60,170 nt of DNA from Nanobdellota archaeon (GCA_018816335.1 JAHIVP010000024.1:1-60170); one strand, 5' to 3'; shown: positions 35,926 to 59,841, numbered from the stretch's first letter. Program-made: numbers and translations. The notes: generated by a model not told the origin, from the letters alone.

Positions 35926-36557
35926 GCTGGTATGAAGTTGAATCAAAATTAAAAGTCAAAGATGAAAAAGAGATGAGGAAGAAGATTAAGAGCATAGCTA
36001 GGTTTGTGAAGAAAGAGGTTAAGAGAGATACTTATTATGCAATTGTTAAGAATGGTTATCCTAAAAAGGCGTTTAGGATTAGGAAGGTTAAGGATGATTG
36101 GGTGATGAATTTTAAAGTTTGGAATAAAAAGTATTGGGATAAACATATTGTTGTTAAGGAAGAGTATGAAATTGAGTTAGGAGATAAGGAGTCTTTTTTG
36201 AAGTTTCTTGAAGATTTGAATTTTAGAAAATGGGTTGAGAAAGTTAAGCATTCAGAATCATATATTGTTAAATATGATTCTTCTCCTGCAAAATCAAAGA
36301 CTGCACCTTCGCGCAGATCAGGTAAAAATTTTGCAGGTTGTGAAAATTATAAGACTAAGAATGGAGTTAATATTGAATTGTCGAGGGTGGAGGGGTTGGG
36401 GTGGTTTATGGAGATTGAAGTTTTAGCTAAGGAGAAGGATATTTTGAATGCTAAGAAAAAGATTAGAAAAGTGTTTTTGGATTTAGAAATTAAGGGTTAT
36501 GATATGATTGATAATACTGGTTATACTAAGATGTTGTGGAAGAAAAGGAGAAAATGA
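35922..36557 (+). CDS. CYTH-domain protein (CyaB/thiamine-triphosphatase-like) with an in-frame PAL-K insertion
   Basis: N-terminal EVESKLK (ExExK) and C-terminal VEGLGWFMEIEV, also seen in the paralogue at 57033. An extra ~28 aa (..SSPAKSKTAPSRRSGKNFAGC..) is encoded by the palindrome 36286-36337. Confidence 0.7.
   Translation: MSWYEVESKLKVKDEKEMRKKIKSIARFVKKEVKRDTYYAIVKNGYPKKAFRIRKVKDDWVMNFKVWNKKYWDKHIVVKEEYEIELGDKESFLKFLEDLNFRKWVEKVKHSESYIVKYDSSPAKSKTAPSRRSGKNFAGCENYKTKNGVNIELSRVEGLGWFMEIEVLAKEKDILNAKKKIRKVFLDLEIKGYDMIDNTGYTKMLWKKRRK
36286..36337 (+). repeat. PAL-K palindrome inside the CYTH gene
   Basis: cctgcaaaat-caaaga-CTGCACCTTCGCGCAG-atcaggtaaaa-attttgcagg, with perfect 10-bp outer arms. 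Confidence 0.8.
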
Positions 36558-37603
36558 AAATACTTTACGGATTAGCAGGAGAGGGTTTTGGCCATAGTTC
36601 TAGGGCTAAGGCAATTATTCCTTATTTAGAGAAAAGAGGACATAAAGTTAAAGTTGTAACTTATGGGCAAGCAGTTGATGTTTTGAAAAAAGAAAAATAT
36701 GATGTGTTTGAGATCAAGGGATGTGAGTTTGTTTTTGAAAAAGGGAGATTGAAGAAGTCTAAGACTTTGTATAAGAGTTGGAATAATTTCTTTGATAATA
36801 TTAAGAAGAGTAAAGAAATTTATGATTTGATGTTAGAGGATTTTGATTTATTGATTTCAGATATGGAGCCTTTAGTTTCTATTTTGTCTAATTGGTATAG
36901 GTTGCCTTTGTTAAGTTTAGATAATCAGCATAGGTTGACTAATTTGGATTTGAATGTTCCTGAAGAATATAAAATAGATTTTGAGATGGCTAGATTTGTT
37001 GTTAATTTATTTTGTAGGTCTGCTGATTGGTATATAATTGTTAATTTTGCTAATTCTAAAGTTAATAAGAAATGGAAAGAGATAACTTTTCAGGTTCCTC
37101 CAATTATTAGGCCAGATGTTAGAAAGTTGAAACCTAAAAAGAAGGATTATGTTCTTGTTTATTTAAGTAAGAAAGATAGGAAGATTGTTAATTTGTTGAA
37201 GAAGATTGATGATAATTTTGTTGTTTATGGGATGGATAAAGAAGGGAAGGAAGGGAATATTGTTTATCATAAAAAAGGGTTTGGATTTGTTAATGATTTG
37301 AAAGATTGTAAGGCGATTGTTGCTTCTGCTGGATTTAGTTTGATTGCAGAGGCGTTGTATTTGAATAAGCCGTATTTTGCTTTGCCATTGAAAGGACAGT
37401 TTGAGCAGATGTTGAATGCTATTGAGTTAAGGGGGGCGGGGTTTGGAGATTATAGTGTTGGTTTGAAAAACAGAGAAGTTGAAGATTTTTTATCTGATTT
37501 AAAGAAATATGAAATTAAGTTGAAGAAGTATAAACCTGATTATGATTTGTTATTTAAGAAACTTGATGTTGTTATTAGGAAGGTTAAGAATAATAAAAGT
37601 TAA
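36554..37603 (+). CDS. GT-B fold glycosyltransferase (MurG/UDP-glycosyltransferase-like)
   Basis: MKILYGLAGEGFGHSSRAKAI.. is a N-terminal Gly-rich loop. C-terminal motifs ..ASAGFSLIAEALYLNKP...P...QFEQ..NA. ATGA overlap with the CYTH gene. Confidence 0.65.
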   Translation: MKILYGLAGEGFGHSSRAKAIIPYLEKRGHKVKVVTYGQAVDVLKKEKYDVFEIKGCEFVFEKGRLKKSKTLYKSWNNFFDNIKKSKEIYDLMLEDFDLLISDMEPLVSILSNWYRLPLLSLDNQHRLTNLDLNVPEEYKIDFEMARFVVNLFCRSADWYIIVNFANSKVNKKWKEITFQVPPIIRPDVRKLKPKKKDYVLVYLSKKDRKIVNLLKKIDDNFVVYGMDKEGKEGNIVYHKKGFGFVNDLKDCKAIVASAGFSLIAEALYLNKPYFALPLKGQFEQMLNAIELRGAGFGDYSVGLKNREVEDFLSDLKKYEIKLKKYKPDYDLLFKKLDVVIRKVKNNKS

Positions 37604-37609
37604 ATAGTT

Positions 37610-37939
37610 ATGTTATATGGTTATATCATGATTGATAGAACAGAAGGGATTAATTGTGAAGATACTATGTCTACTGGGGGTTTTGGTGGTGGAGGGGTGT
37701 TTTGGGAGGCACTTAATGATTTAGGGAGACAGGGAAGGGTGGTGGTTTGCGGTAGGAATGTTTCTAGGGTTGCTTATGAGCAGGATAAAGGGGTTTATGA
37801 TGGGATGCAAAGAAAATATGAAGAAGCAGTGAGAAAGATGGTAGAAGCAAGCAAAGCAGCAGCAGGTGCGAGGGTGATACCTACTTCTTTATGTAGGAGG
37901 AGTGGGACAGAATATGCAAGACAAGTGGCAAGATGCTAG
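37610..37939 (+). CDS. Lys-poor orphan protein K (up to 109 aa; start uncertain)
   Basis: ORF with a very G-rich, C-poor coding strand (e.g. 27 G and 3 C in 37681-37740, counted by hand). Alternative ATGs at 37628 and 37667. Confidence 0.5.
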   Translation: MLYGYIMIDRTEGINCEDTMSTGGFGGGGVFWEALNDLGRQGRVVVCGRNVSRVAYEQDKGVYDGMQRKYEEAVRKMVEASKAAAGARVIPTSLCRRSGTEYARQVARC

Positions 37940-38054
37940 AAGATTGGCAGGATTGAATCATAGTGATGAGATGTATGAGAGAAATAGAGCTGGTTCTGTT
38001 TAATCTTATTTATAGTAGATAAAAATTTATATAGTTTGATAATTATTGATTATT

Positions 38055-38336
38055 ATGGGAAAATTATCTACACTGGGATTTGTTCCAGCTATTTTGAAAG
38101 GAGTTGGGAGATTTAATACTCTTGAAATTTCTGGTGACAGAAGAGGTGTGGCTCCTTTAAGTCGTGGTAATTTTTGTCAAAGTACATCTGTTCCTGCTCT
38201 TGGAAGGAGATTGTTTGCTAGGGTTGAGGCTGCACGAAGAGCAGTAATAGTTTATGATGTTTCTATTATTGGGATTGTTGAGAGAGTTTTTAGTGAAGGT
38301 GGAGAATATTCTAGGAAGTTTTTTGATTATAATTAA
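38055..38336 (+). CDS. Lys-poor orphan protein L (93 aa)
   Basis: The first ATG is at 38055 (the tracked start 38046 is TTG). TATA-like aaaaatttatatagtt lies ~20-33 nt upstream. Confidence 0.5.
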   Translation: MGKLSTLGFVPAILKGVGRFNTLEISGDRRGVAPLSRGNFCQSTSVPALGRRLFARVEAARRAVIVYDVSIIGIVERVFSEGGEYSRKFFDYN

Positions 38337-38348
38337 ATTTATATATTT
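38335..38348 (+). promoter_or_regulatory. TATA-box-like element upstream of the HIT gene
   Basis: aaatttatatattt lies 19-32 nt upstream of the ATG at 38367. Confidence 0.4.
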
Positions 38349-38366
38349 CTTTTATTCTGGAGTTAT

Positions 38367-38774
38367 ATGAAAGACTGCTTATTTTGTAAGATAATTAAGA
38401 AGGAAATTCCTAGTGAGATTATTTATGAAGATGAAGCAGTTGTGGTTTTTTTAGATATTAATCCTGTGAATAAAGGACATGCTCTTGTTGTGCCTAAGAA
38501 ACATTTTGAAACTTCACTTGATTTGCCTGATTCTATTTTATGTGATGTTATTCAGATTGCGAAGAGGGTTGCGATGAAACAAATGAAAGAGTTGAAGTGT
38601 GGAGGAGTGAATTATATTATGAATAATTTTAAAGCTGCTGGGCAGGAAGTTCCTCATGCTCACCTACATGTTATTCCTAGATTTGATGAAGATGATTTGG
38701 TTTTTTTGCAGGGGAATAAATCTGGATATGAAGATGATATTGGTGAGTTTAGAGAGAAGTTGAATATAGTTTAA
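38367..38774 (+). CDS. HIT-family (histidine triad) nucleotide hydrolase
   Basis: CLFCKII.., [12 protein letters not shown] and the histidine triad HAHLHVIPR. Confidence 0.85.
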
Positions 38775-38971
38775 ATCTTATTTTCTTTAACTAATTCAGC
38801 AAATTTTTTAAAACTTCTGTCATAGGTTTTTTCTATGTCATTTGAGAAGCAACATGCTGGGAGTTCTTTTCTAGAAAGATGATATGATAAACATCCACAA
38901 CATTTTCCTTTTTTATCACAAGGATATGTACAATTGCAGTTTGAGCTGTTTTCTTGTTTTTTGCATTCCAT
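38771..38971 (-). CDS. small cysteine-rich protein (66 aa)
   Basis: [42 protein letters not shown].. contains 9 Cys. The tracked ORF (to 39049) is an artefactual extension into tRNA-Met. Confidence 0.5.
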
Positions 38972-38991
38972 TTTATTTTTGTGAATAGAAG

Positions 38992-39063
38992 TGGCTGCGG
39001 TGGGAGTTGAACCCACGACCTCTTGCTCATGAGACAAGCGTTCTGCCACTGAACTACGCAGCC
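38992..39063 (-). tRNA. tRNA with anticodon CAT (elongator Met, or Ile2 after modification)
   Basis: Reverse complement ggctgcgtagttcagtggcagaacgcttgtctcatgagcaagaggtcgtgggttcaactcccaccgcagcca. Anticodon loop CTCATGA. The acceptor stem is not of the archaeal initiator type. Confidence 0.8.
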
Positions 39064-39140
39064 ATGAAATTAGGTAGATTATTGTGTTTAAAAGTTTAAT
39101 GATTCATAAGATATAAAAACAAAGAATTCTATAGGAAGTT

Positions 39141-39374
39141 ATGGTAGGTGTAGAAGAGTTGCCAGCAAATATAACTAATTATATTCCTGAATCTGTTTTG
39201 CATAATATTGATTTTTTGATAACTATGCTCCAGGCTTTAGGAATTATTATTCTTGCTTATTTAGTTTTTAATGTTATTAGTTTGATTATGCAGAGAAAGA
39301 GATTGAAGGAATTGAAAGAGATAAACCAACGGCTAATTAGAATTGAGAAAAAATTAAAAATCTCAAAAAATTAA
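39141..39374 (+). CDS. small single-pass membrane protein
   Basis: One hydrophobic helix (LITMLQALGIIILAYLVFNVISLIM) followed by a basic coiled tail. Confidence 0.45.
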   Translation: MVGVEELPANITNYIPESVLHNIDFLITMLQALGIIILAYLVFNVISLIMQRKRLKELKEINQRLIRIEKKLKISKN

Positions 39375-39382
39375 ATAATAAA

Positions 39383-39547
39383 TTATCCTGTGCGTATTGT
39401 TGAAGGCCTATAGTTTCCTGGAAGTGCTTCTCTTATCATTCTTGCTCCTTCATCTGCTAATATATATTTACGCACATGGTTCTTCCAAGCATCTGTAGCA
39501 CTAACATATCTTCCGTTTCCTTCTTCTTGTCTTTGTTCTTCTGCCAT
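39383..39547 (-). CDS. small Lys-poor orphan protein (54 aa, below the ORF-track cutoff)
   Basis: Hand translation gives MAEEQRQEEGNGRYVSATDAWKNHVRKYILADEGARMIREALPGNYRPSTIRTG*. This is the only member of the Lys-poor class seen on the - strand. Confidence 0.35.
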   Translation of the reverse strand: MAEEQRQEEGNGRYVSATDAWKNHVRKYILADEGARMIREALPGNYRPSTIRTG

Positions 39548-39773
39548 TTTGTTTTATCTCCTATGATTTAATTAAGATTTCACAGAATTGTCAATAGACC
39601 TTTAGATTTTTGTGAATTAAGTTAAATTGTTAGAATCAAAAGGTCATCAGCAGATTACTGTGAGACCTTTGAATTCGCAACTACGTATTTTGCATTAGAT
39701 GCATTAATAATAGTTGCTATTTTCATGTTTTATCTAAGAGTATGTTTTATTTAAGTCTTTCTAAAAATAAAAT

Positions 39774-40091
39774 TTATTTTTTCTGAAGTGCTATTGCTAT
39801 TGTTGAGACATTTATTCTTTTTCCTTCTTTGTTTTCAAAATCTTCAGAATCGATTTTGATATCTCTTACTGAAACATTGTGTTCTTTTAGGAATCTTTTT
39901 GTTGCTACTTCTGATACGTCAACAGCTCTAGAAATAAATTTTCCTCTTGCTTTTATGAAAACTTCTTTGTATCCTTTTGTTGTAAATTGCATCACAACTC
40001 CTGTAACATAGTTCATGAAAGGTTTGTTTCCAATAAACACAGAGTTTTCATTTTTGTCAATCTCTTTTGTATTTTCTGTCATCTTTGTCAC
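39774..40091 (-). CDS. albA: Alba (Sac10b) DNA/RNA-binding protein
   Basis: ..NSVFIGNKPFMNYVTGVVMQF...EVFIKARGKFISRAVDVSEV...V....I shows the Alba fold pattern. Confidence 0.85.
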   Translation of the reverse strand: MTKMTENTKEIDKNENSVFIGNKPFMNYVTGVVMQFTTKGYKEVFIKARGKFISRAVDVSEVATKRFLKEHNVSVRDIKIDSEDFENKEGKRINVSTIAIALQKK

Positions 40092-40116
40092 CGTTTGTTT
40101 AACTTGTTGTTAATAA

Positions 40117-40311
40117 CTATTTATCTTTTTCCTTTTCTTCTACTAATTTTAGCCTTGCTAAATATCCTGCAATTTTGTTTCTTATTTTCTTAGAAGGCAT
40201 GCTATTACCTAAGAGTTTCTTATTGTGATCAAATGTCCCATCAAATTTGTTTTCTAATTTGAGTAAGTTTTTTGATGTTCTTTTAACTAGTGTTGGTTTT
40301 ATTCTTCCCAT
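40117..40311 (-). CDS. rps17e: ribosomal protein S17e
   Basis: MGRIKPTLVKRTSKNLL...F..NKK.L......SKKIRNKIAGY matches eS17. Confidence 0.85.
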   Translation of the reverse strand: MGRIKPTLVKRTSKNLLKLENKFDGTFDHNKKLLGNSMPSKKIRNKIAGYLARLKLVEEKEKDK

Positions 40312-40351
40312 GTTATTAATGTTGTTTTAGGGTATTTAAGGTTTATTGTGT

Positions 40352-40410
40352 TAATTTTTTAATCCTATATAAAACCCTCCCTCCCTCCCTTTTTTAGGAT
40401 TAAAAAATTA
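40352..40410 (+). repeat. PAL-C palindrome
   Basis: taattttttaatcctatataaaa-CCCTCCCTCCCTCCC-ttttttaggattaaaaaatta, with 15-bp arms, upstream of the S17e start. Confidence 0.85.
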
Positions 40411-40427
40411 TTTTATCTTCTTGTTAC

Positions 40428-41459
40428 CTATATCTTCTTGAATTTTAATAAATTTTTCCATTCACTTAAAAACAACCCTGCTTTTTTAACAACTTCTCCA
40501 GGAGAGATAAATAAAACTGGAAGTTTTTCTGATGTTGATTTTTGCATTGCTACAGCAAAATCGTTTTCTGTTATTTTCTTTTTATCCTTTGCTATTATGA
40601 GGTATTCAATTTTTCCAATATCTGAGTTTATTCTTATTTTACCTTGATATTCTCTTTTTTTTGAAATTGTTTCTTCTAATAATTCTAAATCTTCTTTTTG
40701 TAATAGTTCAATTATGTCTTTAACAAAATTCTTTTCTTGTATTTTTGGAGTTGGTGGTTTTTCTGGTTCTTTTTCTTCTGTAACTTTTTCTTCTGGAGTA
40801 GATTCAATTTTTGGTTTTTCAGGAATTATTTGTTGTAGAGGTTTTTCAAATTGAGGTTTTTGTCTTGGAATTTCTTGTATTATACTTTGTTTTTCTTCTG
40901 GTTTTTTTTCTTGTATTATTTCTTTTTGTGGTTCAGTAGGAGATTCTGAAGGTGTTTGGGATGGTGTTAGTATGGTTGTTGAGGAGGGAGTAGGTTTCTT
41001 TTCTTCTGTGTTGATTCTTTCTTTAGCTTTTTCTATTATTTCTTTAGCTTTGTTTTCATCAATTGAATATATTCTCCAGTATAATTTTCCCTTGTGTTCT
41101 AATGAATAAGCAAAATCTTTTATGTTTCTTAGAGCAACTCTTATTGGAGGAATTTGAGATTCATCATTTAAAACTTGTTTTTCTTTGAGTTTTTGAAAAG
41201 CTTCTTGTTCTTTTTCTTCTAAATGTTTTGTAAAATTTTCTAATTGTGATTTATGATGGGGAATATAGTATAAAGGTGAACCTCCAACTTTTAGATTTGA
41301 TATTGTAATTTGTTTATCTCCTAAAAGTTCTGATAAAAAAGCTGATGAGAATAACATTGATAGTCCTGTCTCATTTGCAACATGAACTGGAAGGCATGGA
41401 CCTCTAGTTTTGAGAATTTCTAGAATTTTTCCTTTTTTGTCTTGGAATTTGTTTTCCAT
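40428..41459 (-). CDS. hypothetical protein with an N-terminal winged-helix-like domain and a Pro/Glu/Lys-rich linker
   Basis: The N-terminus ..ILEILKTRGPCLPVHVANETGLSMLFSSAFLSELLGDK.. looks wHTH-like. The central region is low-complexity PTPSSTT..EKKPEEK. No confident family. Confidence 0.4.
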   Translation of the reverse strand: MENKFQDKKGKILEILKTRGPCLPVHVANETGLSMLFSSAFLSELLGDKQITISNLKVGGSPLYYIPHHKSQLENFTKHLEEKEQEAFQKLKEKQVLNDESQIPPIRVALRNIKDFAYSLEHKGKLYWRIYSIDENKAKEIIEKAKERINTEEKKPTPSSTTILTPSQTPSESPTEPQKEIIQEKKPEEKQSIIQEIPRQKPQFEKPLQQIIPEKPKIESTPEEKVTEEKEPEKPPTPKIQEKNFVKDIIELLQKEDLELLEETISKKREYQGKIRINSDIGKIEYLIIAKDKKKITENDFAVAMQKSTSEKLPVLFISPGEVVKKAGLFLSEWKNLLKFKKI

Positions 41460-41470
41460 TTTTTATTTTG

Positions 41471-41524
41471 AATTTTTATCTCATATAAAACCCTCCCACC
41501 CTCCCTTTTAATGAGATAAAAATT
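41471..41524 (+). repeat. PAL-C palindrome
   Basis: aatttttatctcatataaaa-CCCTCCCACCCTCCC-ttttaatgagataaaaatt. Confidence 0.85.
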
Positions 41525-41610
41525 AATTCAATTTATTATTAACAGATAAATGGTGGTGGAGGTTATAAAGATTATTGGGGTGGAGTACTTCTTAATTTAT
41601 ACCAGGTAAT

Positions 41611-41674
41611 AACCCAACTCCCAACCACGCTCGTTGGTCGATTTTCATCGCCTCGCGTAATTGCTCGCCCTCCC
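41611..41674 (-). repeat. GC-rich element GCE-3 (short form)
   Basis: The + strand reads aacccaactcccaaccacgctcgttggtcgattttcatcgcctcgcgtaattgctcgccctccc, which aligns with GCE-1. Confidence 0.75.
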
Positions 41675-41732
41675 ATTCTTATTATGGGATAAATTAAGTA
41701 AACTTTTTAAATCTGAGATGATAGTTTATATT

Positions 41733-41936
41733 ATGATAATACCAGAATATGTTAGGGCTGATGAAATATTAGATAGTCCTCAGAGAACTGATATAGCTTC
41801 GAGAGTTAAAGAACAAATGAGAAGAGACGGGACAATGAAGAGACTTGATGAGTATATACATCGAGAGATGAAAGATTTCTGTGATTTAATGCATCAACCT
41901 GTTTGTGGATGTGATAGTTGCAGTAGGATGAGTTAA
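41733..41936 (+). CDS. Lys-poor orphan protein Q (67 aa)
   Basis: The first ATG is at 41733 (the tracked start 41661 is a TTG inside GCE-3): MIIPEYVRADEILDSPQRTDIASRVKEQMRRDG...CGCDSCSRMS. The stop overlaps the endA stop. Confidence 0.4.
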   Translation: MIIPEYVRADEILDSPQRTDIASRVKEQMRRDGTMKRLDEYIHREMKDFCDLMHQPVCGCDSCSRMS

Positions 41937-42493
41937 GGTTTAGTCCACTTAACTTCATAATAAGTAACATCTCCTTCGTCGTCAACAATAGCGATTAATA
42001 GGTTCTTTTTTGTTGAGTGTGCAACTCTGTTTTTTCCTGAGAATTCGTGCCATGTTAGAGGATCTGATTCGTGAACTGGATAAAGAATCCACTTTGCGTG
42101 ATCTTGTCCTGGTTTAACACCTTTTTCATAAACTCTAAACTCTGCTCCAAATTTTAAAGCTGTTTTTACTAAATATCCTCTTTGTCTCATATCTTTGAAT
42201 ACAATATAATTTGTATTAATTTTTTTATCTATATCTTCTATTTTTTCTTTGAATTTTCTTGCTGAGATTTTCTTTGATTTTTCTTTTATTTCCATTTTCT
42301 TTTTCTCTATTAAATATAGTGCTTCAACTAAAGAGTATTGTATTTTTTCATCTACTGGTTCTCCGAATCTTGATTTTGCATAGAGATTTTTTGCTTCTGT
42401 TGAATTTGAAGTTGCGTTTTTGCCAGAGAAAACTGCGTTTATAATTTTTGATTCTGTTTTTGATTTCTTAGTTGTTTTCTTTTTCATTACCAT
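41933..42493 (-). CDS. endA: tRNA-splicing endonuclease
   Basis: The C-terminal catalytic domain ..ALKFGAEFRVYEKG......HAKWILYPV......VAHSTKK.LLIAIVD carries the Y/H/K triad pattern. Confidence 0.85.
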   Translation of the reverse strand: MVMKKKTTKKSKTESKIINAVFSGKNATSNSTEAKNLYAKSRFGEPVDEKIQYSLVEALYLIEKKKMEIKEKSKKISARKFKEKIEDIDKKINTNYIVFKDMRQRGYLVKTALKFGAEFRVYEKGVKPGQDHAKWILYPVHESDPLTWHEFSGKNRVAHSTKKNLLIAIVDDEGDVTYYEVKWTKP

Positions 42494-42545
42494 AAGTATC
42501 TATAGGAAAATATATATTTAAATATAATGATTTTTTTGTTTAGGC

Positions 42546-43364: not shown

Positions 43365-43401
43365 TCGGTGATTTTAAAAATATCTCTTATTTAATATAAA
43401 G

Positions 43402-45942
43402 ATGGTTTATAACTTTAAAAAAATAGAAAAGAAATGGCAGAAAGAGTGGGAGAAGTCGAAGATTTTTGAAGTGAAAGAAGATTCAAAGAAAAAAAAATAT
43501 TATGTTCTTGATATGTTTCCGTATCCTTCAGGAGAGGGGTTGCATATTGGGCATGCTTTTACTTTTTCTTTAGGAGATATTTATGCTCGGTTTAAGAGAA
43601 TGCAAGGATATAATGTTCTTTATCCTGTAGGTTATGATTCTCTTGGACTTCCAGCTGAGAATGCTGCAATAAAAGCAAAAGAGCATCCTTTAGATTATAC
43701 TAAGAGATCTATGAAAAATTTTATGAAGCAAGAGAAAGCAATGGGATGGAGTTATGATTGGAGTAGAGTTGTTGCTAGTCATGATCCTGAATTTTATAAA
43801 TGGGATCAGTGGATTTTTTTGAAGATGTTTGAGAAAGGAATTGCTTATAGGAAAAAAGCTCCTGTTAATTGGTGTAGGAAGTGTGATACTGTTTTAGCTA
43901 ATGAGCAGGTTACAGATGGAAAGTGTTGGAGGCATGAGGATACAGATGTTGAAATTAAACATTTAGAGCAGTGGTTTTTTAAGATTACAGATTATGCTGA
44001 TGAATTGCTTGAAGGACTTGATAAAATTGATTGGCCAGATAATGCTAAGAAGAGACAGAGAAATTGGATTGGGAAGAGTCATGGGGTTGAGATTGATTTT
44101 GAAATAAATAATGAGAAATGGGGAATTTTTACAACAAGGCCAGATACAATTTATGGTGTTACATTTATGGTTGTTTCTGCTCAACATGCTAGATTAGATG
44201 AACTTGTGACTGATGAAAAGAAAAAAGATGTTGATAAATTTTTGAAGAAGTTGAAGAGTGTTTCTGAAAAAGAGTTGGGAGATATGGAGAAGGAAGGAGT
44301 TTTTACTGGAAGTTATGCTATTAATCCTGTTAATGGGGAGAAGATTCCTGTTTATGCTGGGAATTTTGTTTTAGCTGATTATGGTAGTGGTATGGTGATG
44401 GCTGTTCCTGCTCATGATCAAAGAGATTTTGAATTTGCTAAGAAGTATTCTATTCCAATTAAAGTTGTGATTAATCCTGCTGAATATGATTTAGATGCTG
44501 ATAAAATATCAAGAGCTTATACTGCTGATGGAAGATTGATTAATTCTTCAGACCCTCGGAAATCAAAAATTTCCGGGGCCACAAAATCTAAGACTGCGCC
44601 TACGCGCAGGGATGGCGAGGATTTTGATGGTTTTGATAATTGGAATTCTAGAGAAGCTATTGAAGGTATTTCTGATTTTTTAGAGAAAAAGAAATTTGGA
44701 AAGAGAGTTGTTCAGTTTAAGTTGAGGGATTGGTTGATTTCTAGACAGAGATATTGGGGAACTCCTATTCCGATTATTTATTGTGATGATTGTGGGATTG
44801 TTCCTGTTTCTGAAAAAGATTTACCTATTGAACTTCCTAAAAATGTTAAGTTTGGAAAAGGAAATCCTTTGGAAACTAATAAAAAATTTGTTGAAGTGAA
44901 ATGTCCAAAGTGTGGGGGAAAGGGGAGGAGAGAGACAGATACAATGGATACTTTTGCAAATTCTTCTTGGTATTATTTGAGATATGCTGATCCTAAAAAT
45001 TCTAAAAAGATTTTTGATGAGAAAAAGGCAAATTATTGGGCTCCGATTGATCAGTATATTGGTGGGCCAGAGCATATTACTATGCATTTGATTTATGTTA
45101 GATTTTATACAAAGTTTTTGAGGGATTTAGGATTGTTGAAATTTGATGAGCCTGCTTTGAAATATTTTACTCAAGGAATTGTTCATGCAGCTGATGGAAG
45201 TAGGATGAGTAAGTCAAAAGGAAATATTATTGAGCCTTTGGATATGATTAAAAAATATGGAGCTGACACTTTGAGATTGGCTCTTGTTTCATTTGCTTCT
45301 CCTGATAAAGATACTAATTGGGATGAAAAAATAGTTTTAGGAAATCATAAGTTTTTGAATAAAGTTTGGGATTATTTTTCTGATTTAAAGAATATTAATG
45401 GAAAAGTTGATTTGAAAGTCGAGAGTAAGTTGAATAAGACTATTAAGGAAGTTACTGGTTATGTTGATAAGTTTAAACACAATCTTGCTATAATTAGACT
45501 TAGAGAGTTGTTTGATTGTTTTGATAAGATTGATAAGAAGACAGCTGAGAAATTTTTGATTATGTTGCATGTTTATTGCCCGTTTATAACAGAAGAATTA
45601 TGGAACAAGATTGGAAATAAAGGATTTATTTCACAAGCTAAGTGGCCAAAATTTGATGAGAAGAAGATTGATGAAAAGTTTGAGAAAGCTGAGAAAGAGA
45701 GTGATGGATTAGTTGGAGATATAAATAATTTGTTGAGGATTATGGAAGAGAAAAAGCAGAAAGTCGAGAAGGTTTATGTTTATGTTCTTCCGAATGAAGT
45801 TGATAATTATTTTGCTGAAGAGTTGAGTAAGCGTTCTCATACAGAGGTTGTGGTTTATTCTGTTGCTGATAAAGATAAGTATGATCCTGAAGGTAAGAGT
45901 AAGAAGGCGAAGCCTGGGAAGCCGGGGATTTATTTGGAGTAA
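43402..45942 (+). CDS. leuS: leucyl-tRNA synthetase, bacterial-like type, with an in-frame PAL-K insertion
   Basis: PYPSGEGLHIGHAF (HIGH), NWCRKCDTVLANEQV..GKCWRH, QRNWIGKS and SRMSKSKGN (KMSKS). An extra ..SDPRKSKISGATKSKTAPTRRDGED.. precedes FDGFDNW. Confidence 0.9.
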   Translation: MVYNFKKIEKKWQKEWEKSKIFEVKEDSKKKKYYVLDMFPYPSGEGLHIGHAFTFSLGDIYARFKRMQGYNVLYPVGYDSLGLPAENAAIKAKEHPLDYTKRSMKNFMKQEKAMGWSYDWSRVVASHDPEFYKWDQWIFLKMFEKGIAYRKKAPVNWCRKCDTVLANEQVTDGKCWRHEDTDVEIKHLEQWFFKITDYADELLEGLDKIDWPDNAKKRQRNWIGKSHGVEIDFEINNEKWGIFTTRPDTIYGVTFMVVSAQHARLDELVTDEKKKDVDKFLKKLKSVSEKELGDMEKEGVFTGSYAINPVNGEKIPVYAGNFVLADYGSGMVMAVPAHDQRDFEFAKKYSIPIKVVINPAEYDLDADKISRAYTADGRLINSSDPRKSKISGATKSKTAPTRRDGEDFDGFDNWNSREAIEGISDFLEKKKFGKRVVQFKLRDWLISRQRYWGTPIPIIYCDDCGIVPVSEKDLPIELPKNVKFGKGNPLETNKKFVEVKCPKCGGKGRRETDTMDTFANSSWYYLRYADPKNSKKIFDEKKANYWAPIDQYIGGPEHITMHLIYVRFYTKFLRDLGLLKFDEPALKYFTQGIVHAADGSRMSKSKGNIIEPLDMIKKYGADTLRLALVSFASPDKDTNWDEKIVLGNHKFLNKVWDYFSDLKNINGKVDLKVESKLNKTIKEVTGYVDKFKHNLAIIRLRELFDCFDKIDKKTAEKFLIMLHVYCPFITEELWNKIGNKGFISQAKWPKFDEKKIDEKFEKAEKESDGLVGDINNLLRIMEEKKQKVEKVYVYVLPNEVDNYFAEELSKRSHTEVVVYSVADKDKYDPEGKSKKAKPGKPGIYLE
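44555..44626 (+). repeat. PAL-K palindrome (double hairpin) inside leuS
   Basis: Hairpin cggaaat-caaaa-atttccg, then caaaatc-taaga-CTGCGCCTACGCGCAG-ggatggcgag-gattttg. Confidence 0.8.
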
Positions 45943-46538: not shown

Positions 46539-46545
46539 TTTAGTA

Positions 46546-51204: not shown

Positions 51205-51290
51205 AATTTTACTCCACACAATATCCCCCCACCCACCCGTTATTGTGGAATAAAATAAACTCCTCCACCATTTTAATGAGGTAAAAATTA
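51205..51290 (+). repeat. composite PAL-C palindromes upstream of alaS
   Basis: ctccacacaata-TCCCCCCACCCACCCG-ttattgtggaataaaataa has the same right arm as the copy at 30917-30935. A second C-tract ctcctccacca with an ttttaatgagg arm follows. Confidence 0.75.
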
Positions 51291-51324
51291 ATTCTTTGAT
51301 ATTTATGTTTAGAATAAGGGATAT

Positions 51325-53178: not shown

Positions 53179-53208
53179 TTATTTAAACATTAGGTATTTA
53201 ATTATTCT

Positions 53209-53913: not shown

Positions 53914-53924
53914 GTTAATAAAAG

Positions 53925-54494: not shown

Positions 54495-54550
54495 GTGGGA
54501 TGGGGGTTGGAGTTTTACTATTTAATCTTGATGAAAATTTATGGGGAAAG

Positions 54551-54560
54551 TTTTTATATT
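54551..54560 (+). promoter_or_regulatory. TATA-box-like element upstream of orphan O
   Basis: tttttatatt lies 20-29 nt upstream of the ATG at 54580. Confidence 0.4.
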
Positions 54561-54579
54561 TTATATTCTTTAGTTAAGA

Positions 54580-55584
54580 ATGGATGCTTTGGAAGAGTTA
54601 AGAAAACAAGAAGAGGAGAGTGCTACTGGCGCGAGAAACCAATTTTTTTATAGAGCTGTTGGAGAAGCTAGAAATCCTGAATTAGCTATGGCTCTGTTAG
54701 GTGCTATTTGTCGTAGTGGAGATGGGGGGATGATGCAGTCTTTAGCAGAAGGGCTTGGTGTTGAGAGAGCAGAAGTTGAAAGAACTGCGGCACATTTAGC
54801 AGAAAGGGGGTTGGTTTATGTAAGTAGACATGAGTCTAAATCAATATCTTTGAGAGATCTTGGATTTATTAGTTCTGTTGCACGTCGTGAGGGAGTTAGA
54901 CATCCTGAATGGGATTCAATTTTTATTCCTCGAGAAATAAGCGAAGATTTGGATAATTTTTTAGTTTCTGATTTAGGCTATGGGCCTATTCATGTTTTTG
55001 ATCTTAAGGAATTACCAATGGAAAAGGCAAGGACTTTAATGAAAGGGGTTGAAGATTTGGTTAGGTTTTATTATACAAAAAGCTTTCAGTTTCCTTTGGA
55101 ACCTTTGGAAGCTCTGAGAGAAAGAACTAAGGAAGAGATAGAAGCAATCAGAAGAGTTGAAAGAGATTTTATCCATAGAAATTTAGGGGTTCCAGCTAAT
55201 TATGATTCTGGAGAATTAACTTTTGTTTATAATCATGATGCAACTAATGTAGAAGGCTATTCTAGAAGTCATTTTGATTTTTCAGGAAAATTTCCTAGCG
55301 TTGATGATGCATTTAAGGTCGGATTTGATTCTGCTAATGGCTATCCTGTATCTGGAGTTAAATGGGTTCCTCGTTTTTTTAAAGAAGAAGTAGATACCTA
55401 TTGTCCTGGAGTTGAAGTTAGGAAAATAACAACTGACGGAAGTGAGACTTATGGATTTAGGTTAGAAATTAATCGATGGCAATATGCTCATCAGATTCAG
55501 CCACTAATTGTTCAGAGAGATGTTAAAAAAACAATGGACACTTTAGTTGAAAGAGTTGGAAAGATAGTTGAAGTTTTAGATTAA
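54580..55584 (+). CDS. Lys-poor orphan protein O with a probable N-terminal winged-helix domain
   Basis: 334-aa ORF. ..MQSLAEGLGVERAEVERTAAHLAERGLVYVS.. looks MarR/wHTH-like. The rest is unrecognised. The stop overlaps the stop of the convergent gene. Confidence 0.7.
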   Translation: MDALEELRKQEEESATGARNQFFYRAVGEARNPELAMALLGAICRSGDGGMMQSLAEGLGVERAEVERTAAHLAERGLVYVSRHESKSISLRDLGFISSVARREGVRHPEWDSIFIPREISEDLDNFLVSDLGYGPIHVFDLKELPMEKARTLMKGVEDLVRFYYTKSFQFPLEPLEALRERTKEEIEAIRRVERDFIHRNLGVPANYDSGELTFVYNHDATNVEGYSRSHFDFSGKFPSVDDAFKVGFDSANGYPVSGVKWVPRFFKEEVDTYCPGVEVRKITTDGSETYGFRLEINRWQYAHQIQPLIVQRDVKKTMDTLVERVGKIVEVLD

Positions 55585-56828
55585 AAAAACTGAGTTAACC
55601 TAGATTGTTTACCAAATTCTTTTAATAAACTACTTTGAGATGTGAATAAATTTATAGGAAGTTTTAATTTTTTTTGTGCGGTTTGTAATGTTTCATTTAG
55701 TGTTGAAAATTTTTCTGGTTTTTTTGTGAAAGCATGGCGAGTTGCTTCTCTTAAGATTCCTATTCCGCAAGGAGCATAGTATTCTGGACGACATTCACGG
55801 AGAACTAAACATGATGCTTGTCTTTTTATCTTGATTAGAAATTCTGTGAGTGCTAATCTGTTGGCATAGTAAGCTCCTGTTACATTATCTGCGTATTTTT
55901 TTCTTCCTCTAAATGATTCATAATCTTTTGAAATATATATTTTTGAATTTGTATCTGGGTTCCATAAAGTTCCTGGAATTTCAGCTTCCATAACTTCAAA
56001 TGAGAATTTATCTGGGAGTAGAATTATTTCATAATGGTTCCCGAGATAGTAAGAAGTGAATAAATAGAATTCTGATATTTCTGAGAAGTATTTAATCTTG
56101 CTTAGTAGCTGTTTTGATAGTGTGTCATCTGTTGCTGTGATTGCCCATCTTGTTGGAACTAATTTTCTGTTTTTTGCTATTCCTAAAAGGCCTGCTGATA
56201 GAATTTTTATTATGTTTGAGGTTGGTATTTTTGATTTGTATAATTCTTTCATTGCTGTTACTGATTTTACATCGTAATCATTTGTTAAGTAGTCAACTTT
56301 TTTATGGACTTTTGGATTTTCTTGAAGGCGGGCTTTTAGGAGGGGGGCAGGGTTTCCTATGATTGGCATTTCGCTTGTTAGGTATATATTTTGATTTGGA
56401 AGTTTTTTTAGAAATATTTCTGTGTCTACTGGTTTGTATGCCATTGAAATTTCTTGCATTATTTGAAGTGGTCTTGGTATTTTTGAATTTAGTTTTGGTA
56501 AATTATTTCTTACTGATTTGATTGAGCTTTTGAATCTTCCATAAATTAATTTTCCTCTTGAGTTTAATATTTGTTCAATTGAAAATTTGTTTGAATGCCA
56601 TTGTTCTGGCATGCTTAGGGTTTCAGCTTCATCTGTGTGTTCTTGAGGAGCTAAGATTCCTGTGTTTACTTGAGGATAGTTGAATCTTCCTACAAATATT
56701 TCTGGAGGAGAGTTTCCTGAGAAATGAAGTTTTGGTTTTGGCATTGATGCTTTAAACTTGTTTATTATTGGACATGGTTTTCCACATAATCCTTTTCCTT
56801 TACACTTGATGCAGAGGTCTATGTTCAT
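55581..56828 (-). CDS. Nre-family (archaeal DNA-repair-associated) protein
   Basis: The N-terminal Cys cluster MNIDLCIKCKGKGLCGKPCP and ~415-aa length match my memory of archaeal NreA/NreB-type proteins. Confidence 0.55.
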   Translation of the reverse strand: MNIDLCIKCKGKGLCGKPCPIINKFKASMPKPKLHFSGNSPPEIFVGRFNYPQVNTGILAPQEHTDEAETLSMPEQWHSNKFSIEQILNSRGKLIYGRFKSSIKSVRNNLPKLNSKIPRPLQIMQEISMAYKPVDTEIFLKKLPNQNIYLTSEMPIIGNPAPLLKARLQENPKVHKKVDYLTNDYDVKSVTAMKELYKSKIPTSNIIKILSAGLLGIAKNRKLVPTRWAITATDDTLSKQLLSKIKYFSEISEFYLFTSYYLGNHYEIILLPDKFSFEVMEAEIPGTLWNPDTNSKIYISKDYESFRGRKKYADNVTGAYYANRLALTEFLIKIKRQASCLVLRECRPEYYAPCGIGILREATRHAFTKKPEKFSTLNETLQTAQKKLKLPINLFTSQSSLLKEFGKQSRLTQFF

Positions 56829-56871
56829 TTTTCTTTTTTTGAAATTTGTGCTTTATTATTAACTCTCTCCC

Positions 56872-56933
56872 AAAATTTTAATACCTTACACAATACCCCT
56901 CCCTCCCTCCCTATTAAATAAAGTATTAAAATT
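56872..56933 (+). repeat. PAL-C palindrome
   Basis: aaattttaatac...-CCCCTCCCTCCCTCCCT-...gtattaaaattt with 12-bp outer arms, upstream of the Nre-like gene start. Confidence 0.8.
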
Positions 56934-57032
56934 TAAATCTCCTATAATTTATGGTATAAAAATTAAATTATTAAGATAAATCTTTAGAAGTATATATTGA
57001 TTTGTATAATATTATATAAACTTTGAAAGTTT

Positions 57033-57551
57033 ATGTTAGTTGTGGGACATGTGAATATTGAGATTAAGGCAAAGTGTGAGAATCATGAGAAGATAAGGGT
57101 GATTTTGAAAGGGAGGGGGGCAGAGTTTAAAGGAGAGGATCATCAGATAGATACTTATTTTAAAGTTGGAAATGGGAGACTGAAACTTCGGGAGGGGAAT
57201 ATAGAGAATTATTTAATTTTTTATGAGAGAGAGGATAAAGAAGGACCAAAGCAGTCTGATGTTATTTTGTTTAAAACTTCGCCTAATTCTGAGATAAAAG
57301 AAATTTTGAAAAAGAGTGTTGGTGTTTTGGTTGTAGTTGATAAGAAGAGGGAAATTTATTTTATTGATAATGTGAAGTTTCATATTGATATTGTTGAGGG
57401 GTTGGGGAGTTTTATTGAGATAGAGGCTATTGACAAAGAAGGAAATATCGGGAAAGATAAGTTGTTGGAACAATGTAATAGTTATCTTGAGATGTTTAAT
57501 ATTCCTAAAGAGAATTTAATTACTAATTCTTATAGTGATTTGATTATATAG
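57033..57551 (+). CDS. CYTH-domain protein (class IV adenylyl cyclase / CyaB-like)
   Basis: NIEIKAK (ExK), ..DTYF......LKLRE.., and FHIDIVEGLGSFIEIEA. Confidence 0.75.
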   Translation: MLVVGHVNIEIKAKCENHEKIRVILKGRGAEFKGEDHQIDTYFKVGNGRLKLREGNIENYLIFYEREDKEGPKQSDVILFKTSPNSEIKEILKKSVGVLVVVDKKREIYFIDNVKFHIDIVEGLGSFIEIEAIDKEGNIGKDKLLEQCNSYLEMFNIPKENLITNSYSDLII

Positions 57552-57605
57552 AATACTGTCAACTTAAAGTATTATGCTTCTAAAAAATTAATAATATCTT
57601 ATGAT

Positions 57606-57707
57606 AAACCCTCCCAACTCCCGACCCCACTCGTTGATCGTTTTTTATCGCTGGTGACTGCAAGTCTCGTACCTGCTCGACACTGACCTGAAATCGCTCG
57701 CCCTCCC
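57606..57707 (-). repeat. GC-rich element GCE-4 (long form)
   Basis: Nearly identical to 1755-1854, with only a few substitutions by eye. Flanked by AT-rich partial inverted repeats. Confidence 0.85.
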
Positions 57708-57810
57708 TTTTCTAGGGTTGTTAATAAGAAGATATTTTCTAAAATATATAATAAATCAATATACTAAATTCAAAATAAGAAAATCTAATTTTTGTTAAGA
57801 TTAGGTAGGT

Positions 57811-57996
57811 TTATCCTTTTAGATCAGAGATTCCAAGTAATAAGAATAGTAATCCTATCATGATTACAAACCACACAATTCCACCTTTAAGGAATTCTAG
57901 TGCTGCTTCTCCAAATCCGTAGTAGTTAAGTCCCCAGACCCAAACTGCTCCGAGTATTAGGATTAAACCTATTAAAATTTCAGCCCATTTATTCAT
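57811..57996 (-). CDS. small two-helix membrane protein
   Basis: 61 aa with two hydrophobic helices (ILIGLILILGAVWVW; VWFVIMIGLLFLLLGI). Confidence 0.45.
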   Translation of the reverse strand: MNKWAEILIGLILILGAVWVWGLNYYGFGEAALEFLKGGIVWFVIMIGLLFLLLGISDLKG

Positions 57997-58047
57997 CTTA
58001 TTATTTTGACAATTTTAGGATATATAAACATTATTGTTGTTGATTTT

Positions 58048-58993
58048 TTGTGCACGCAGGTGACATATGTCACCCCCTAAAATAATTTAGCAAAATCAAA
58101 GTAAACCTGAGCAGGAGTTTTATTACTAAGGCTCTTATGTCCTCTGAAATGATTATATCTCATCCTAAATTCATTAATATCTTTACAGAAAGATAATTCT
58201 CTTTTAATTGTCTGAAATAATCTCTCTACCTTTCCACAAGTGGTTGGACTATGAACAGCACTACGAATATGCTTTATCCCTCTACGCCTGCACCATCTAT
58301 CGAACTTTGAATGTTTACTCTTTGATCCATAAGCAGATCCATTATCTGATAATATTTGTTTAGGTTTACCATGAATTTTTATTAGATCATCTAAGATTTT
58401 AGTCACAACTCTTGTTGTGACTCTATTAACTGCTAATAATCCAATACTATAACGAGAACAATCATCAACCACAGATATTAACCATTTATCTTTAACCTTT
58501 TGATCGCTGTGGTCTATTTGCCATAATGAGTTAGGATGTTTTCTTTCAAATCTGATATAATTATTTCTCTTCTTCTTTCTTTTAGATGGACTTGTAAGAT
58601 TATGTTTATTTAGAATTTTGTTTACAGACCAATGACTTACATTAACATAATCTTGAATTCTCTCTTGTCCCCATCCTGTTTTTTGTCTAATTTTAACGAT
58701 TTTGTTTTCTATTTCAGAAGTTATTTTTGAGTATGTTGTCTTCGGTGCTCTAGATTTATCACTTAAATCCCAATTGTCTTCATTTAACTTTTTGCTCCAA
58801 CGATATAACGTTCTTAATGTTACTTCGTAATCAAACTTTGCTTTGAGTATCCTCTTACATTGATTGTAAGAATGATGTTTTATTCTTAGTTTAAAGAACT
58901 CTTTTCTTATTTCTTCTTTTTTCATTAGATTCGCAAGTTATCACTTGCGAACTAATTTTCGGTTAGCTACTGACATATGTCAGTTGCTTCTAC
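58048..58993 (-). mobile_element. insertion sequence (~0.95 kb) encoding an rve-type DDE transposase
   Basis: Bounded by the 16-bp direct repeat attgttgttgattttt (58032-58047 and 58994-59009). Both ends carry the palindromic core TGACATATGTCA (58060-58071 and 58971-58982). Confidence 0.75.
58077..58925 (-). CDS. DDE transposase, integrase-core (rve) type, IS481/IS3-superfamily-like
   Basis: N-terminal HTH region, then LWQIDHSD (D), ILSDNGSAY (D) and GKVERLFQT (E) with typical spacing. Confidence 0.8.
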   Translation of the reverse strand: MKKEEIRKEFFKLRIKHHSYNQCKRILKAKFDYEVTLRTLYRWSKKLNEDNWDLSDKSRAPKTTYSKITSEIENKIVKIRQKTGWGQERIQDYVNVSHWSVNKILNKHNLTSPSKRKKKRNNYIRFERKHPNSLWQIDHSDQKVKDKWLISVVDDCSRYSIGLLAVNRVTTRVVTKILDDLIKIHGKPKQILSDNGSAYGSKSKHSKFDRWCRRRGIKHIRSAVHSPTTCGKVERLFQTIKRELSFCKDINEFRMRYNHFRGHKSLSNKTPAQVYFDFAKLF

Positions 58994-59083
58994 ATTGTTG
59001 TTGATTTTTATGTTCTTTTGATAATATAATAATAGTTATTATAATATAATAATGTTTATAAATTGTAGATATTTGGTTTATTT

Positions 59084-59308
59084 ATGAAATGTAATGAAAG
59101 ATCCGATTTAAGAGATTCTTTGCCGGTAAGAAATGTTTTGCAGAGAGGCGAGTTAAAGAGAGTAGCAAGTTATTTTGTTGGTTATGTGCGTGCATTCAAA
59201 CGTGCTGTATCAGAGGAATTAAATTATTTGAGACATAAATGGGATCAGCCTATGAGATTTCCTTTACAACCTGGATTTTTTGATGATTATGATTTTAGTG
59301 TGGATTAA
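59084..59308 (+). CDS. Lys-poor orphan protein P (74 aa)
   Basis: ATG ORF right next to the IS, rich in Arg/Val/Phe/Asp. Short, so uncertain. Confidence 0.4.
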   Translation: MKCNERSDLRDSLPVRNVLQRGELKRVASYFVGYVRAFKRAVSEELNYLRHKWDQPMRFPLQPGFFDDYDFSVD

Positions 59309-59527
59309 TGTTATGTTCTGTTTTTATGTTGAGGAAGGAGAATAATTAAGTAATCTACTGAAATAATTAAACAGGTTAGGAAAAGAATCTGTTTTGTTAT
59401 TAAATCAAATTTTCTGTTAAAATAGATAATAGAGTTGCTATTACAATCACAGCTATAAAATTTATTAAGGGATTTTTAGTTAGATAACTCCTATTAGTCT
59501 TAGAAGAATAAATTTTTTTGATAATTT

Positions 59528-59656
59528 GGTTCTGTTGAAAAAGTTCTAGAATTTTAATTTTTTTGGATTAGCCCCCCACTCAACCCTGAAACTCCTTTGG
59601 AGTTTTAATATTAATTAATTTCAAAAACCTTTCAAAAAAATATTTTCAACAGAGCC
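59528..59656 (+). repeat. large palindrome enclosing a PAL-C-like C-tract
   Basis: Arms ggttctgttgaaaa / ttttcaacagagcc match 13 of 14. The interior holds gccccccactcaaccct and the hairpin aaactcc-tttg-gagtttt. Confidence 0.65.
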
Positions 59657-59685
59657 TGATAACTTCAATCCTTTTTGAAATTGCA

Positions 59686-59752
59686 CTTCAAAATCTCCCC
59701 CTCCTAGCTACAAACTTCCCATAGGTTCAAAGGATTTTGAAGTCTTCACTGG
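59686..59752 (+). repeat. palindrome with a C-tract loop
   Basis: Perfect 10-bp arms cttcaaaatc / gattttgaag around tccccctcctagctacaaacttccc... Confidence 0.65.
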
Positions 59753-59789
59753 CTTTAAATAGTATTTATTTTTAGTTAGTTTAAGATAA

Positions 59790-59841
59790 CTCAAACTCTT
59801 AAGACTGCACCTACGCGCAGAATTAATTGAGCGAGTTTGAG
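59790..59841 (+). repeat. PAL-K palindrome (intergenic copy)
   Basis: ctcaaactc-ttaaga-CTGCACCTACGCGCAG-aattaattgagc-gagtttgag, with 9-bp outer arms. Confidence 0.8.

Follow-up and report, generated by a model that had tools for sequence, protein, structure and literature searches.

PAL-K, a probable family of two-hairpin mobile DNA elements inserted in frame in protein-coding genes of DPANN archaea

Why do the gene for leucyl-tRNA synthetase (leuS, encoding LeuRS) and a gene for a CYTH (class IV adenylate cyclase-like) protein of the same archaeon both contain, in frame, a short palindromic sequence that is also present between genes, and what brought it there? The question is raised by a 60,170-nt stretch of DNA from a Nanobdellota archaeon (GCA_018816335.1 JAHIVP010000024.1:1-60170), hereafter the window, in which coordinates count from the first letter. 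An initial annotation described the sequence, PAL-K, as an element family that colonises coding sequence while preserving the frame, a description that is supported by alignments of LeuRS and CYTH homologues and by a census of the core sequence. PAL-K is probably a family of mobile but non-autonomous DNA elements that are short (~76-110 nt), occur in DPANN archaea and consist of two hairpins, denoted A and B. The window can be assigned to a DPANN archaeon because its housekeeping genes are archaeal (TFB, S8e, aIF2-alpha, SRP54, FtsY, GINS, Alba, TFE, Nre and EndA) and the best LeuRS matches (up to 73% identity) carry the names Pacearchaeota, Woesearchaeota and Nanoarchaeota; its GC content is 31%.

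The 20-nt core AAGACTGCRCCTWCGCGCAG is present three times in the window, compared with 0 expected; the core CTGCRCCTWCGCGCAG, on the plus strand at 36301-36316, 44594-44609 and 59805-59820, has no match in 100 dinucleotide-preserving shuffles. All three copies of the initial annotation are therefore real, but they are not the only ones, as a covariance model identified a fourth, diverged copy. Core matches and covariance model together give two intragenic and two intergenic copies in the window:

36251..36337, plus strand: copy 1, type I, 87 nt, in frame within the CYTH gene (class IV adenylate cyclase-like); hairpin A 36254-36263/36272-36281, hairpin B lower stem 36286-36295/36328-36337, core 36297-36316
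36338..36351, plus strand: native target 3' of copy 1, TTGTGAAAATTATA, an imperfect direct repeat (9/14) of 36251-36264, TTCAGAATCATATA
44554..44631, plus strand: copy 2, type I, 78 nt, in frame in leuS, boundary ambiguous by 1 nt
44554..44578, plus strand: hairpin A of copy 2, CCTCGGAAAT-caaaa-ATTTCCGGGG, from folds
44579..44630, plus strand: hairpin B of copy 2, lower stem CCACAAAATCT / GGATTTTG(A)TGG, core 44590-44609, from folds
59778..59880, plus strand: copy 3, type II, ~103 nt, intergenic, a three-way junction (folds; covariance model, 25.1 bits); closing stem AGTTTAA/TTAAACT, hairpin B lower stem 59790-59798/59833-59841, core 59801-59820, ACA, hairpin A 59846-59855/59859-59868
28739..28814, plus strand: copy 4, diverged, intergenic (covariance model, 20.2 bits, E = 0.005-0.011)

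Insertion sites and distribution of PAL-K

The strongest single evidence for recent mobility is a filled/empty pair at the CYTH gene. A syntenic relative from the same metagenome (contig L054, 80% nucleotide identity) has a precise empty site, its CYTH gene running from ..GTTAAGCA straight into TTGTGAAACATATAGG.. where the window has 87 extra nt (36251-36337) that add 29 codons and span residues 110-139 of the protein. The segment is also absent from the 44 closest homologues displayed (60 were aligned) and, as the initial annotation had it, from the CYTH paralogue at 57033. The LeuRS insert comprises 26 aa (26 codons; residues 385-410, PRKSKISGATKSKTAPTRRDGEDFDG) and is absent from all 120 closest homologues in a MAFFT alignment, each of which reads ..NSxxF.. 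without a gap; LeuRS of T. thermophilus (1H3N) is likewise contiguous over the site (flanking residues 387/389). The initial annotation had described the junction as contiguous in bacterial-type LeuRS, which proved accurate. It had also been reasoned that a KSKTAP segment conserved in the LeuRS of relatives would speak for a lineage-specific protein motif; no such conservation is seen, the count being 0/120.

The view that PAL-K is such a motif, or a convergent low-complexity segment, and not a mobile element is contradicted by the data, and its chance of being right is negligible. The peptide is indeed short and rich in K, S, T and R, but 20 identical nucleotides, synonymous positions included, are shared across unrelated genes and intergenic DNA, the intergenic copies contain stops, homologues lack the segment, and a close relative retains the empty site.

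A different insertion, of ~130-250 aa, is found in a number of DPANN LeuRS (P0005, P0031, P0044, P0060, P0074, P0079, P0097, P0108 and P0110). Located at the end of the editing domain, it precedes the PAL-K site by ~15 residues and in some cases includes a NUDIX domain (PF00293); this region of LeuRS seems to be an insertion hotspot.

The distribution of PAL-K beyond the window was assessed with the 20-mer core, which was used to scan the GTDB species genomes once and the JGI metagenomes once. Chance core matches, which were dropped by GC content and context, accounted for 19 of the 21 genome contigs and about half of the metagenome matches; they come from GC-rich bacteria, many of them in one conserved gene. 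The matches that were kept are homologues of the whole element in low-GC DPANN contigs. This census, of a kind already proposed in the initial annotation, shows that other DPANN genomes contain the same element both between genes and, in frame, in genes of four further protein families. The coding hosts outside the window are:

L006: uL2 (translation and Pfam); the copy is identical in a metagenome-assembled genome and four further metagenome contigs
L018: archease, adjoining RtcB (translation and Pfam)
L046: CoA ligase (translation and Pfam)
L049: S-adenosylmethionine (SAM) methyltransferase (translation and Pfam)
L034: lysine-rich open reading frame (ORF), two copies (translation)
L038: small ORF (translation)

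In archease, the insert comprises 26 aa at the last beta-hairpin turn, as judged against P. horikoshii archease (4N2P). Intergenic copies are present in L023, L024, L026, L030, L034 and L044. Among the contigs assembled from the deepest DNA run of the source sample, 11 share at least 80% likeness with the 78-nt unit; about five of the 11 are at the depth of the window's genome, which implies that this genome holds more PAL-K copies than the window shows. The groundwater sample set Ga0180007/8 includes metagenome contigs identical to parts of the window.

Searches at the protein level and among viruses and RNA families were negative. A phmmer search with the 30-aa insert against 1.8 billion representatives gave no match, the query being too short and the cluster representatives lacking the insert; a doubled-peptide profile against a 5.8-billion set gave 1888 word-sharing candidates and none at E <= 10; viral contigs gave a GC-rich chance match only; and Rfam has no PAL-K family at gathering score, with chance-level matches only at E up to 10.

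Small, very basic ORFs composed largely of PAL-K-type units are found in L038 (5117-5524; two units, one of them core-less) and L034 (minus strand, ~1040-1640; two units). These may be genes created from elements or, alternatively, spurious ORFs through element clusters.

Hairpin structure and covariation

Type I elements, represented by the coding copies and some intergenic ones, are 76-87 nt long, with hairpin A followed by hairpin B. The stem of A, RAAATC/GATTTY (for example, CCTCRGAAATC-AAA-GATTTCYGGGG), recurs in the lower stem of B, which consists of 11 bp with one bulge (CCACRAAATCT / AGATTTYG-N-TGG). Above it, an internal loop, AAGA opposite ~9 nt, leads to a 6-bp GC upper stem topped by a tetraloop (core hairpin AAGA-CTGCRC-CTWC-GCGCAG). 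In copy 2, which scores 99.8 bits with the covariance model, the internal loop is AAGA x 9 nt, the upper stem CTGCGC/GCGCAG and the tetraloop CTAC; copy 1 scores 35.5 bits. In the diverged copy 4, with hairpin A CCTAAAAATAT/ATATTTTTGG and hairpin B lower stem CTCTAAAC/GTTTAGAG, the upper stem CTGTGC/GCACAG is a compensatory change relative to CTGCGC/GCGCAG.

The arms quoted in the initial annotation (cctgcaaaat/attttgcagg, caaaatc/gattttg plus cggaaat/atttccg, and ctcaaactc/gagtttgag) are all present and its positions are right, but the inserted units extend beyond its spans, to 78 nt in leuS, 87 nt in CYTH and ~103 nt in copy 3. Its extra leuS hairpin exists, whereas the 5' hairpin A of the CYTH copy (AGAATCATAT/ATATGATTCT, 36254-36281) had been missed. 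Its statement that the outer arms differ in each copy has to be revised, in that the arms are homologous and covary (CAAAATC / CAAAATC / CAAACTC): aligned, they read CAAAATC..ATTTTG, CAAAATC..GATTTTG and CAAACTC..GAGTTTG, the third copy differing by a compensatory pair.

In type II, the modules are permuted relative to type I: the outer closing stem is followed by B, ACA and A. The type II copies, namely copy 3, which lies upstream of a winged helix-turn-helix (wHTH) regulator gene (start 59899), and those of L026, L030 and L044, occur in four different gene contexts. A double hairpin without the core is present in L038 (5213-5264).

Three further structural assignments were considered and rejected. 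The ACA that follows the lower stem in 4/4 type II copies would fit an H/ACA guide RNA, but it is absent from type I, and the apical K-turn/K-loop is absent as well. A K-turn in the internal loop was dismissed, given that only one strand has a GA next to the upper stem. A direct repeat around copy 3 (AAACTCTTAAGACT/AAACTCTTACGAGT) has no counterpart in the remaining type II copies; most likely it arises as a side effect of the closing stem.

Folded as RNA, the elements have z-scores of -2 to -6. Five full copies, aligned without gaps, have 97.5% of the cells paired and double-sided changes at 7 of the 24 pairs; the pairing or covariation score of this alignment was matched in 0 of 500 shuffles. 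Across 17 copies, in a covariance-model alignment that is itself fitted to the structure, 93.5% of the cells are paired, compared with at most 47% in slid-partner controls. In the same set, 18 of the 24 pairs, that is, all pairs of hairpin A and of the lower stem of B, are double-changed, including each of the 7 pairs of the hairpin A helix.

Reading frame and fate of the coding copies

All nine coding copies, distributed over eight genes, have the same strand of the element as the coding strand and are read in the same frame (..KSKTAP[ST]RR..); each comprises a whole number of codons and contains no stop. The intergenic copies have stops in that same frame. The translations given initially, KSKTAPSRRSG in the CYTH ORF (35922-36557) and KSKTAPTRRDG in the LeuRS ORF (43402-45942), are correct, and K, T, A, P, R and R are invariant in the peptide alignment (K-T-A-P-x-R-R). 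Stop codons are absent from about three of the six frames. Of these, the frame in use is the most hydrophilic: its grand average of hydropathy (GRAVY) is -1.0 to -1.7, versus about -0.3 and +0.4 for the other two. Because stops are absent, the lengths are multiples of three and a single frame is used in 9/9 coding copies, translation is favoured, and we infer from these sequence features that the PAL-K inserts are translated.

Under this scenario, the in-gene copies would be transcribed and translated together with the host protein, and the translated insert would be a disordered loop at the surface, basic and hydrophilic (..SKISGATKSKTAP[ST]RR..DF.G), tolerated as in the Rickettsia palindromic elements (RPE). 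Selection would keep only those insertions that fall in the one strongly hydrophilic open frame, and a preferred target 5' of NNNTGA (in genes NNT|GAN, a codon boundary) could further funnel copies into that frame. In the AlphaFold2 model of the CYTH protein (52 homologues; mean predicted local distance difference test, pLDDT, 87), residues 122-143 are a coil with pLDDT <50 between strands 101-117 and 148-156; the insert is thus predicted to be a disordered loop compatible with the host fold. The position of the archease insert, at a hairpin turn, agrees with this prediction, as does the picture drawn for RPE, in which an insertion persists only if it gives rise to a flexible loop at the protein surface (PMC10969869; PMC2229807).

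No Pfam match at E <= 0.001 is obtained for the CYTH protein (35922-36557), although PF01928 is on record for many of its homologues without the insert. It appears that the CYTH domain is hidden from routine annotation by the insert in combination with sequence divergence, and this host illustrates that PAL-K-type inserts can degrade Pfam detection.

Two alternatives to a tolerated, translated insert have to be considered. According to one, the element is intron-like: transcribed and then removed from the mRNA, by EndA at a bulge-helix-bulge or by other RNA processing, to yield proteins without the peptide. The archaeon does possess an intron-containing tRNA (12581-12683) and an EndA gene (41933-42493), the element would be strongly structured if transcribed, its in-gene copies are all sense-oriented, and no RNA contigs extend over it. 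However, folds and inspection allow no bulge-helix-bulge to be drawn, the side-by-side hairpins keeping the boundaries apart, and the loop of hairpin B is 4 x 9 nt instead of staggered 3-nt bulges around a 4-bp helix. Moreover, an excised sequence needs neither freedom from stops nor a multiple-of-three length nor a particular frame, and 9/9 coding copies have all of these, which makes an intron very improbable.

According to the other alternative, the insert is functional, a basic disordered RNA-binding or interaction arm kept on LeuRS, uL2, archease, the methyltransferase and the CYTH protein. This would be compatible with PAL-K being a mobile element, as a later domestication, and would fit the use of one frame in 9/9 copies though about three are open. 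The invariance of K, T, A, P, R and R would fit as well, but is inflated by the search method; the hosts mostly bind RNA or nucleotides, but DPANN genomes are dominated by information-processing genes, and such a set of hosts may be nothing special. In contigs from several samples, the uL2 insertion is fixed; by contrast, the insertions are confined to single lineages (carried by 0/120 LeuRS homologues and by no CYTH homologue that was examined) and AlphaFold gives the insert no structure. Hairpin complementarity is intact in the coding copies, which suggests recent insertion and not long maintenance at the protein level. On balance, a functional arm is unlikely.

Movement, known systems and genomic neighbourhood

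Copy 4 provides a clean insertion. In a tRNA-Arg(TCT) region, the last 33 nt (AAACTAAAYGGCCCCGACAGG+ATTTGAACCTGC) are present twice within 28718-28869, once intact (28837-28869) and once split (28718-28738 and 28815-28826), and copy 4, which is antisense to both adjoining genes, sits exactly between the split parts with 0 bases duplicated. Partial tRNA duplications are of the kind left by integrating elements. A motif also recurs in the flanks: NNNTGA directly follows the terminal GG (TGA at offset 4) in 6 of 13 copies, against an expected 2.7% (P = 6e-7, post hoc), and TGA occurs within 7 nt of the element end in 8 of 13. In the five coding copies with the motif, the phase is NNT|GAN, such that the insertion point is a codon boundary. 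Within contigs, the copies are co-oriented (4/4 in the window, antisense copy 4 included, 3/3 in L034 and 2/2 in L038).

Type I elements lack terminal inverted repeats and have an imperfect hairpin near each end. Mobility would most likely proceed via a folded single strand that is recognised by its structure and not by terminal inverted repeats, possibly by 'peel and paste' of the IS200/IS605 type, as in palindrome-associated transposable elements (PATEs), with a Y1/HUH transposase encoded elsewhere; a circular intermediate would make the permutation between A-B and B-A easy to reach. This single-strand, PATE-like mechanism is the leading model because of the hairpins at both ends, the covarying stems, one duplication-free insertion, the flank motif and the co-orientation, but it is unproven and the weakest step of the explanation.

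A number of observations weigh against one or another part of this account. Type II elements have a closing stem that resembles terminal inverted repeats, and lack the TGA flank. A target duplication at copy 1 is possible and would misfit IS200/IS605: the copy is flanked by an imperfect 14-nt repeat, the empty site holds a single TTGTGAAACATATA, the flanking repeats match the empty-site sequence at 11/14 and 12/14, and the background for a match of at least 9/14 at this spacing is 1.6% of window positions. No Y1/HUH transposase or TnpB was found among the window ORFs scanned with Pfam, a weak negative, and the only transposase in the window, an IS481-like one (58077-58925), belongs to an element with ends unrelated to PAL-K. 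Gene orientation is a confounder of the co-orientation of copies. Template-switch 'correction', a mutational process, can also produce compensatory changes in DNA palindromes without selection, and the core-based search accounts in part for the apparent invariance of the core, given that the model-found copy 4 has CTGTGC/GCACAG. In the groundwater metatranscriptome X3, the only one that contains this genome, parts of leuS and the 5' half of the CYTH gene are covered and no contig extends over any copy; none of the RNA runs was found to contain the element or the uL2 copy. Removal of the segment from mRNA retains a low probability.

Some of these features would be expected of a classical cut-and-paste MITE (miniature inverted-repeat transposable element), moved by a DDE transposase and marked by terminal inverted repeats and target-site duplications. 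The type II closing stem (AAATTTAAGTA / GCATTTAAATTT), the imperfect 14-nt direct repeat flanking the CYTH copy and the IS481-like DDE transposase 870 nt from copy 3 all suit such an element. Type I, however, is devoid of terminal inverted repeats, any target duplication is lacking at copy 4, the stems covary and so offer no fixed transposase-binding sequence, and the IS481-like element has its own, unrelated inverted repeats; a MITE is accordingly a doubtful explanation.

A more far-reaching version of the single-strand model can be formulated, as a speculation with little probability: PAL-K would be a DPANN-specific, structure-recognised single-strand element that has a circular intermediate, the target rule NNT|GAN and a sequence tuned such that insertion in genes yields a disordered basic arm, one that RNA-handling proteins have retained ever since. 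If true, the circular intermediate would explain both the permuted A-B/B-A forms and insertion without duplication, and the transposon would work as a portable protein module as opposed to tolerated junk.

Among known systems, the IS200/IS605 elements have subterminal imperfect palindromes, insert 3' to a specific tetra- or pentanucleotide, form a circular single-stranded DNA intermediate and show strand specificity (PMC3597680). These elements and their miniature derivatives, the PATEs (PMC3597680; PMC3119063), resemble PAL-K type I in having end hairpins and no terminal inverted repeats. The duplication-free copy 4, the short motif next to one end and the same-strand copies within a contig may be IS200/IS605-like as well. 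Unlike in IS200/IS605, the flank motif of PAL-K is 3 nt away from the element end and is present in about half of the copies, no TnpA or TnpB was found among the window ORFs scanned, type II has a closing inverted repeat, and the CYTH copy possibly has a duplication. PATEs that are translated in frame are not known to have been described.

Translated in-frame palindromic elements have a precedent in RPE-1 to RPE-10 (Ogata et al., 2000; summaries in PMC10969869 and PMC2229807). Like PAL-K, the RPE and the protein-coding palindromic repeats of Wolbachia are multi-copy, located both between genes and in frame in conserved, often essential genes, encode a conserved family peptide in one frame, form inserts predicted to be compatible with the host fold and inhabit small-genome, host-dependent organisms. 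PAL-K differs in its DPANN host, in length (76-87 nt for type I versus 105-146 nt) and in having two side-by-side hairpins instead of a single long stem-loop bounded by terminal inverted repeats; for the RPE host gmk, translation has been demonstrated, whereas that of PAL-K is deduced. PAL-K is therefore classified as RPE-like by behaviour, and membership in the RPE families proper is not claimed, the host being an archaeon; similarity in sequence to RPE would not be expected. One archaeal precedent, in the euryarchaeon M. jannaschii, is cited in PMC2229807; it is likewise reported to involve palindromic repeats located between genes and fused in frame into protein genes, in a euryarchaeal as opposed to a DPANN host. 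REP (repetitive extragenic palindromic) sequences and REPINs are extragenic, have a palindrome that is tagged by GTAG or CGTC at one end and are mobilised by RAYT transposases (PMC3733652). They share with PAL-K the short, repeated, GC-rich imperfect palindromes recognised as structures; on inspection of its sequence, PAL-K has CTAC/GTAG in the loop only, is largely AT-rich and is often intragenic.

A full-text literature search returned nothing on palindromic in-frame elements in DPANN archaea. The PAL-K family is new, and its kind is well known from Rickettsia and Wolbachia. Until now, in-frame palindromic selfish DNA in essential genes was a curiosity of these bacteria complemented by one report from a methanogen; a multi-genome DPANN family means that the phenomenon recurs in another reduced-genome, host-dependent lineage. 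For annotators, it explains odd inserts of 26-29 aa in LeuRS, uL2, archease and similar proteins of DPANN archaea. The filled/empty pairs and the clean insertion in a tRNA fragment provide a tractable case for the study of how hairpin elements move and why one frame wins.

Several other features of the window deserve mention. The intron-containing tRNA at 12581-12683 is detected by Rfam and missed by ARAGORN, and the EndA gene (tRNA-splicing endonuclease; 41933-42493), located just upstream of leuS, encodes 185 aa, a size typical of the homotetrameric form. The IS481-like insertion sequence occupies 58049-58994, with the DDE 'rve' transposase at 58077-58925 on the minus strand and inverted repeats at 58049-58072 and 58971-58994; an origin of PAL-K from this neighbouring element was rejected, the ends being unrelated.

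Two more repeat families are present. The first comprises hairpins with the loop CCCTCCCTCCCWCCC (a G-quadruplex-type G3N1 run on the opposite strand) and enclosing inverted repeats that vary by copy. Its ten copies are mostly intergenic, at 5269-5313, 5500-5544, 27609-27653, 28624-28668 and 30893-30937, with further sites at 40369-40413, 41485-41529, 51218-51294 and 56891-56935; two of the hairpins lie within an ORF (5009-5839, minus strand) that has only a weak partial RIO-kinase match. The second, of ~65-128 nt (TAACCCAACTCCCGACC..CGTTGGTCGTTTTTTATCGC..), has four copies (829-893, 1736-1863, 41610-41674 and 57590-57717), of which one pair is 91% identical over 128 nt, and no Rfam match at E <= 1.

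The region 32700-33831 is a diversity-generating retroelement, in which ORF 32700-33518 has a variable repeat (33285-33375) at its 3' end and a template repeat is located at 33741-33831. The two repeats differ at 17 positions, 16 of them template adenines (14 A>G, 2 A>T), and an RT-16 RNA (Rfam RF03019, 91 bits) is located between them at 33549-33737; no intact reverse-transcriptase ORF was found downstream, in 33.8-34.9 kb. Finally, the segment 29647-30797 contains tandem paralogous serine-hydrolase genes (29662-30213 and 30210-30797) with 72% DNA identity over ~190 nt.

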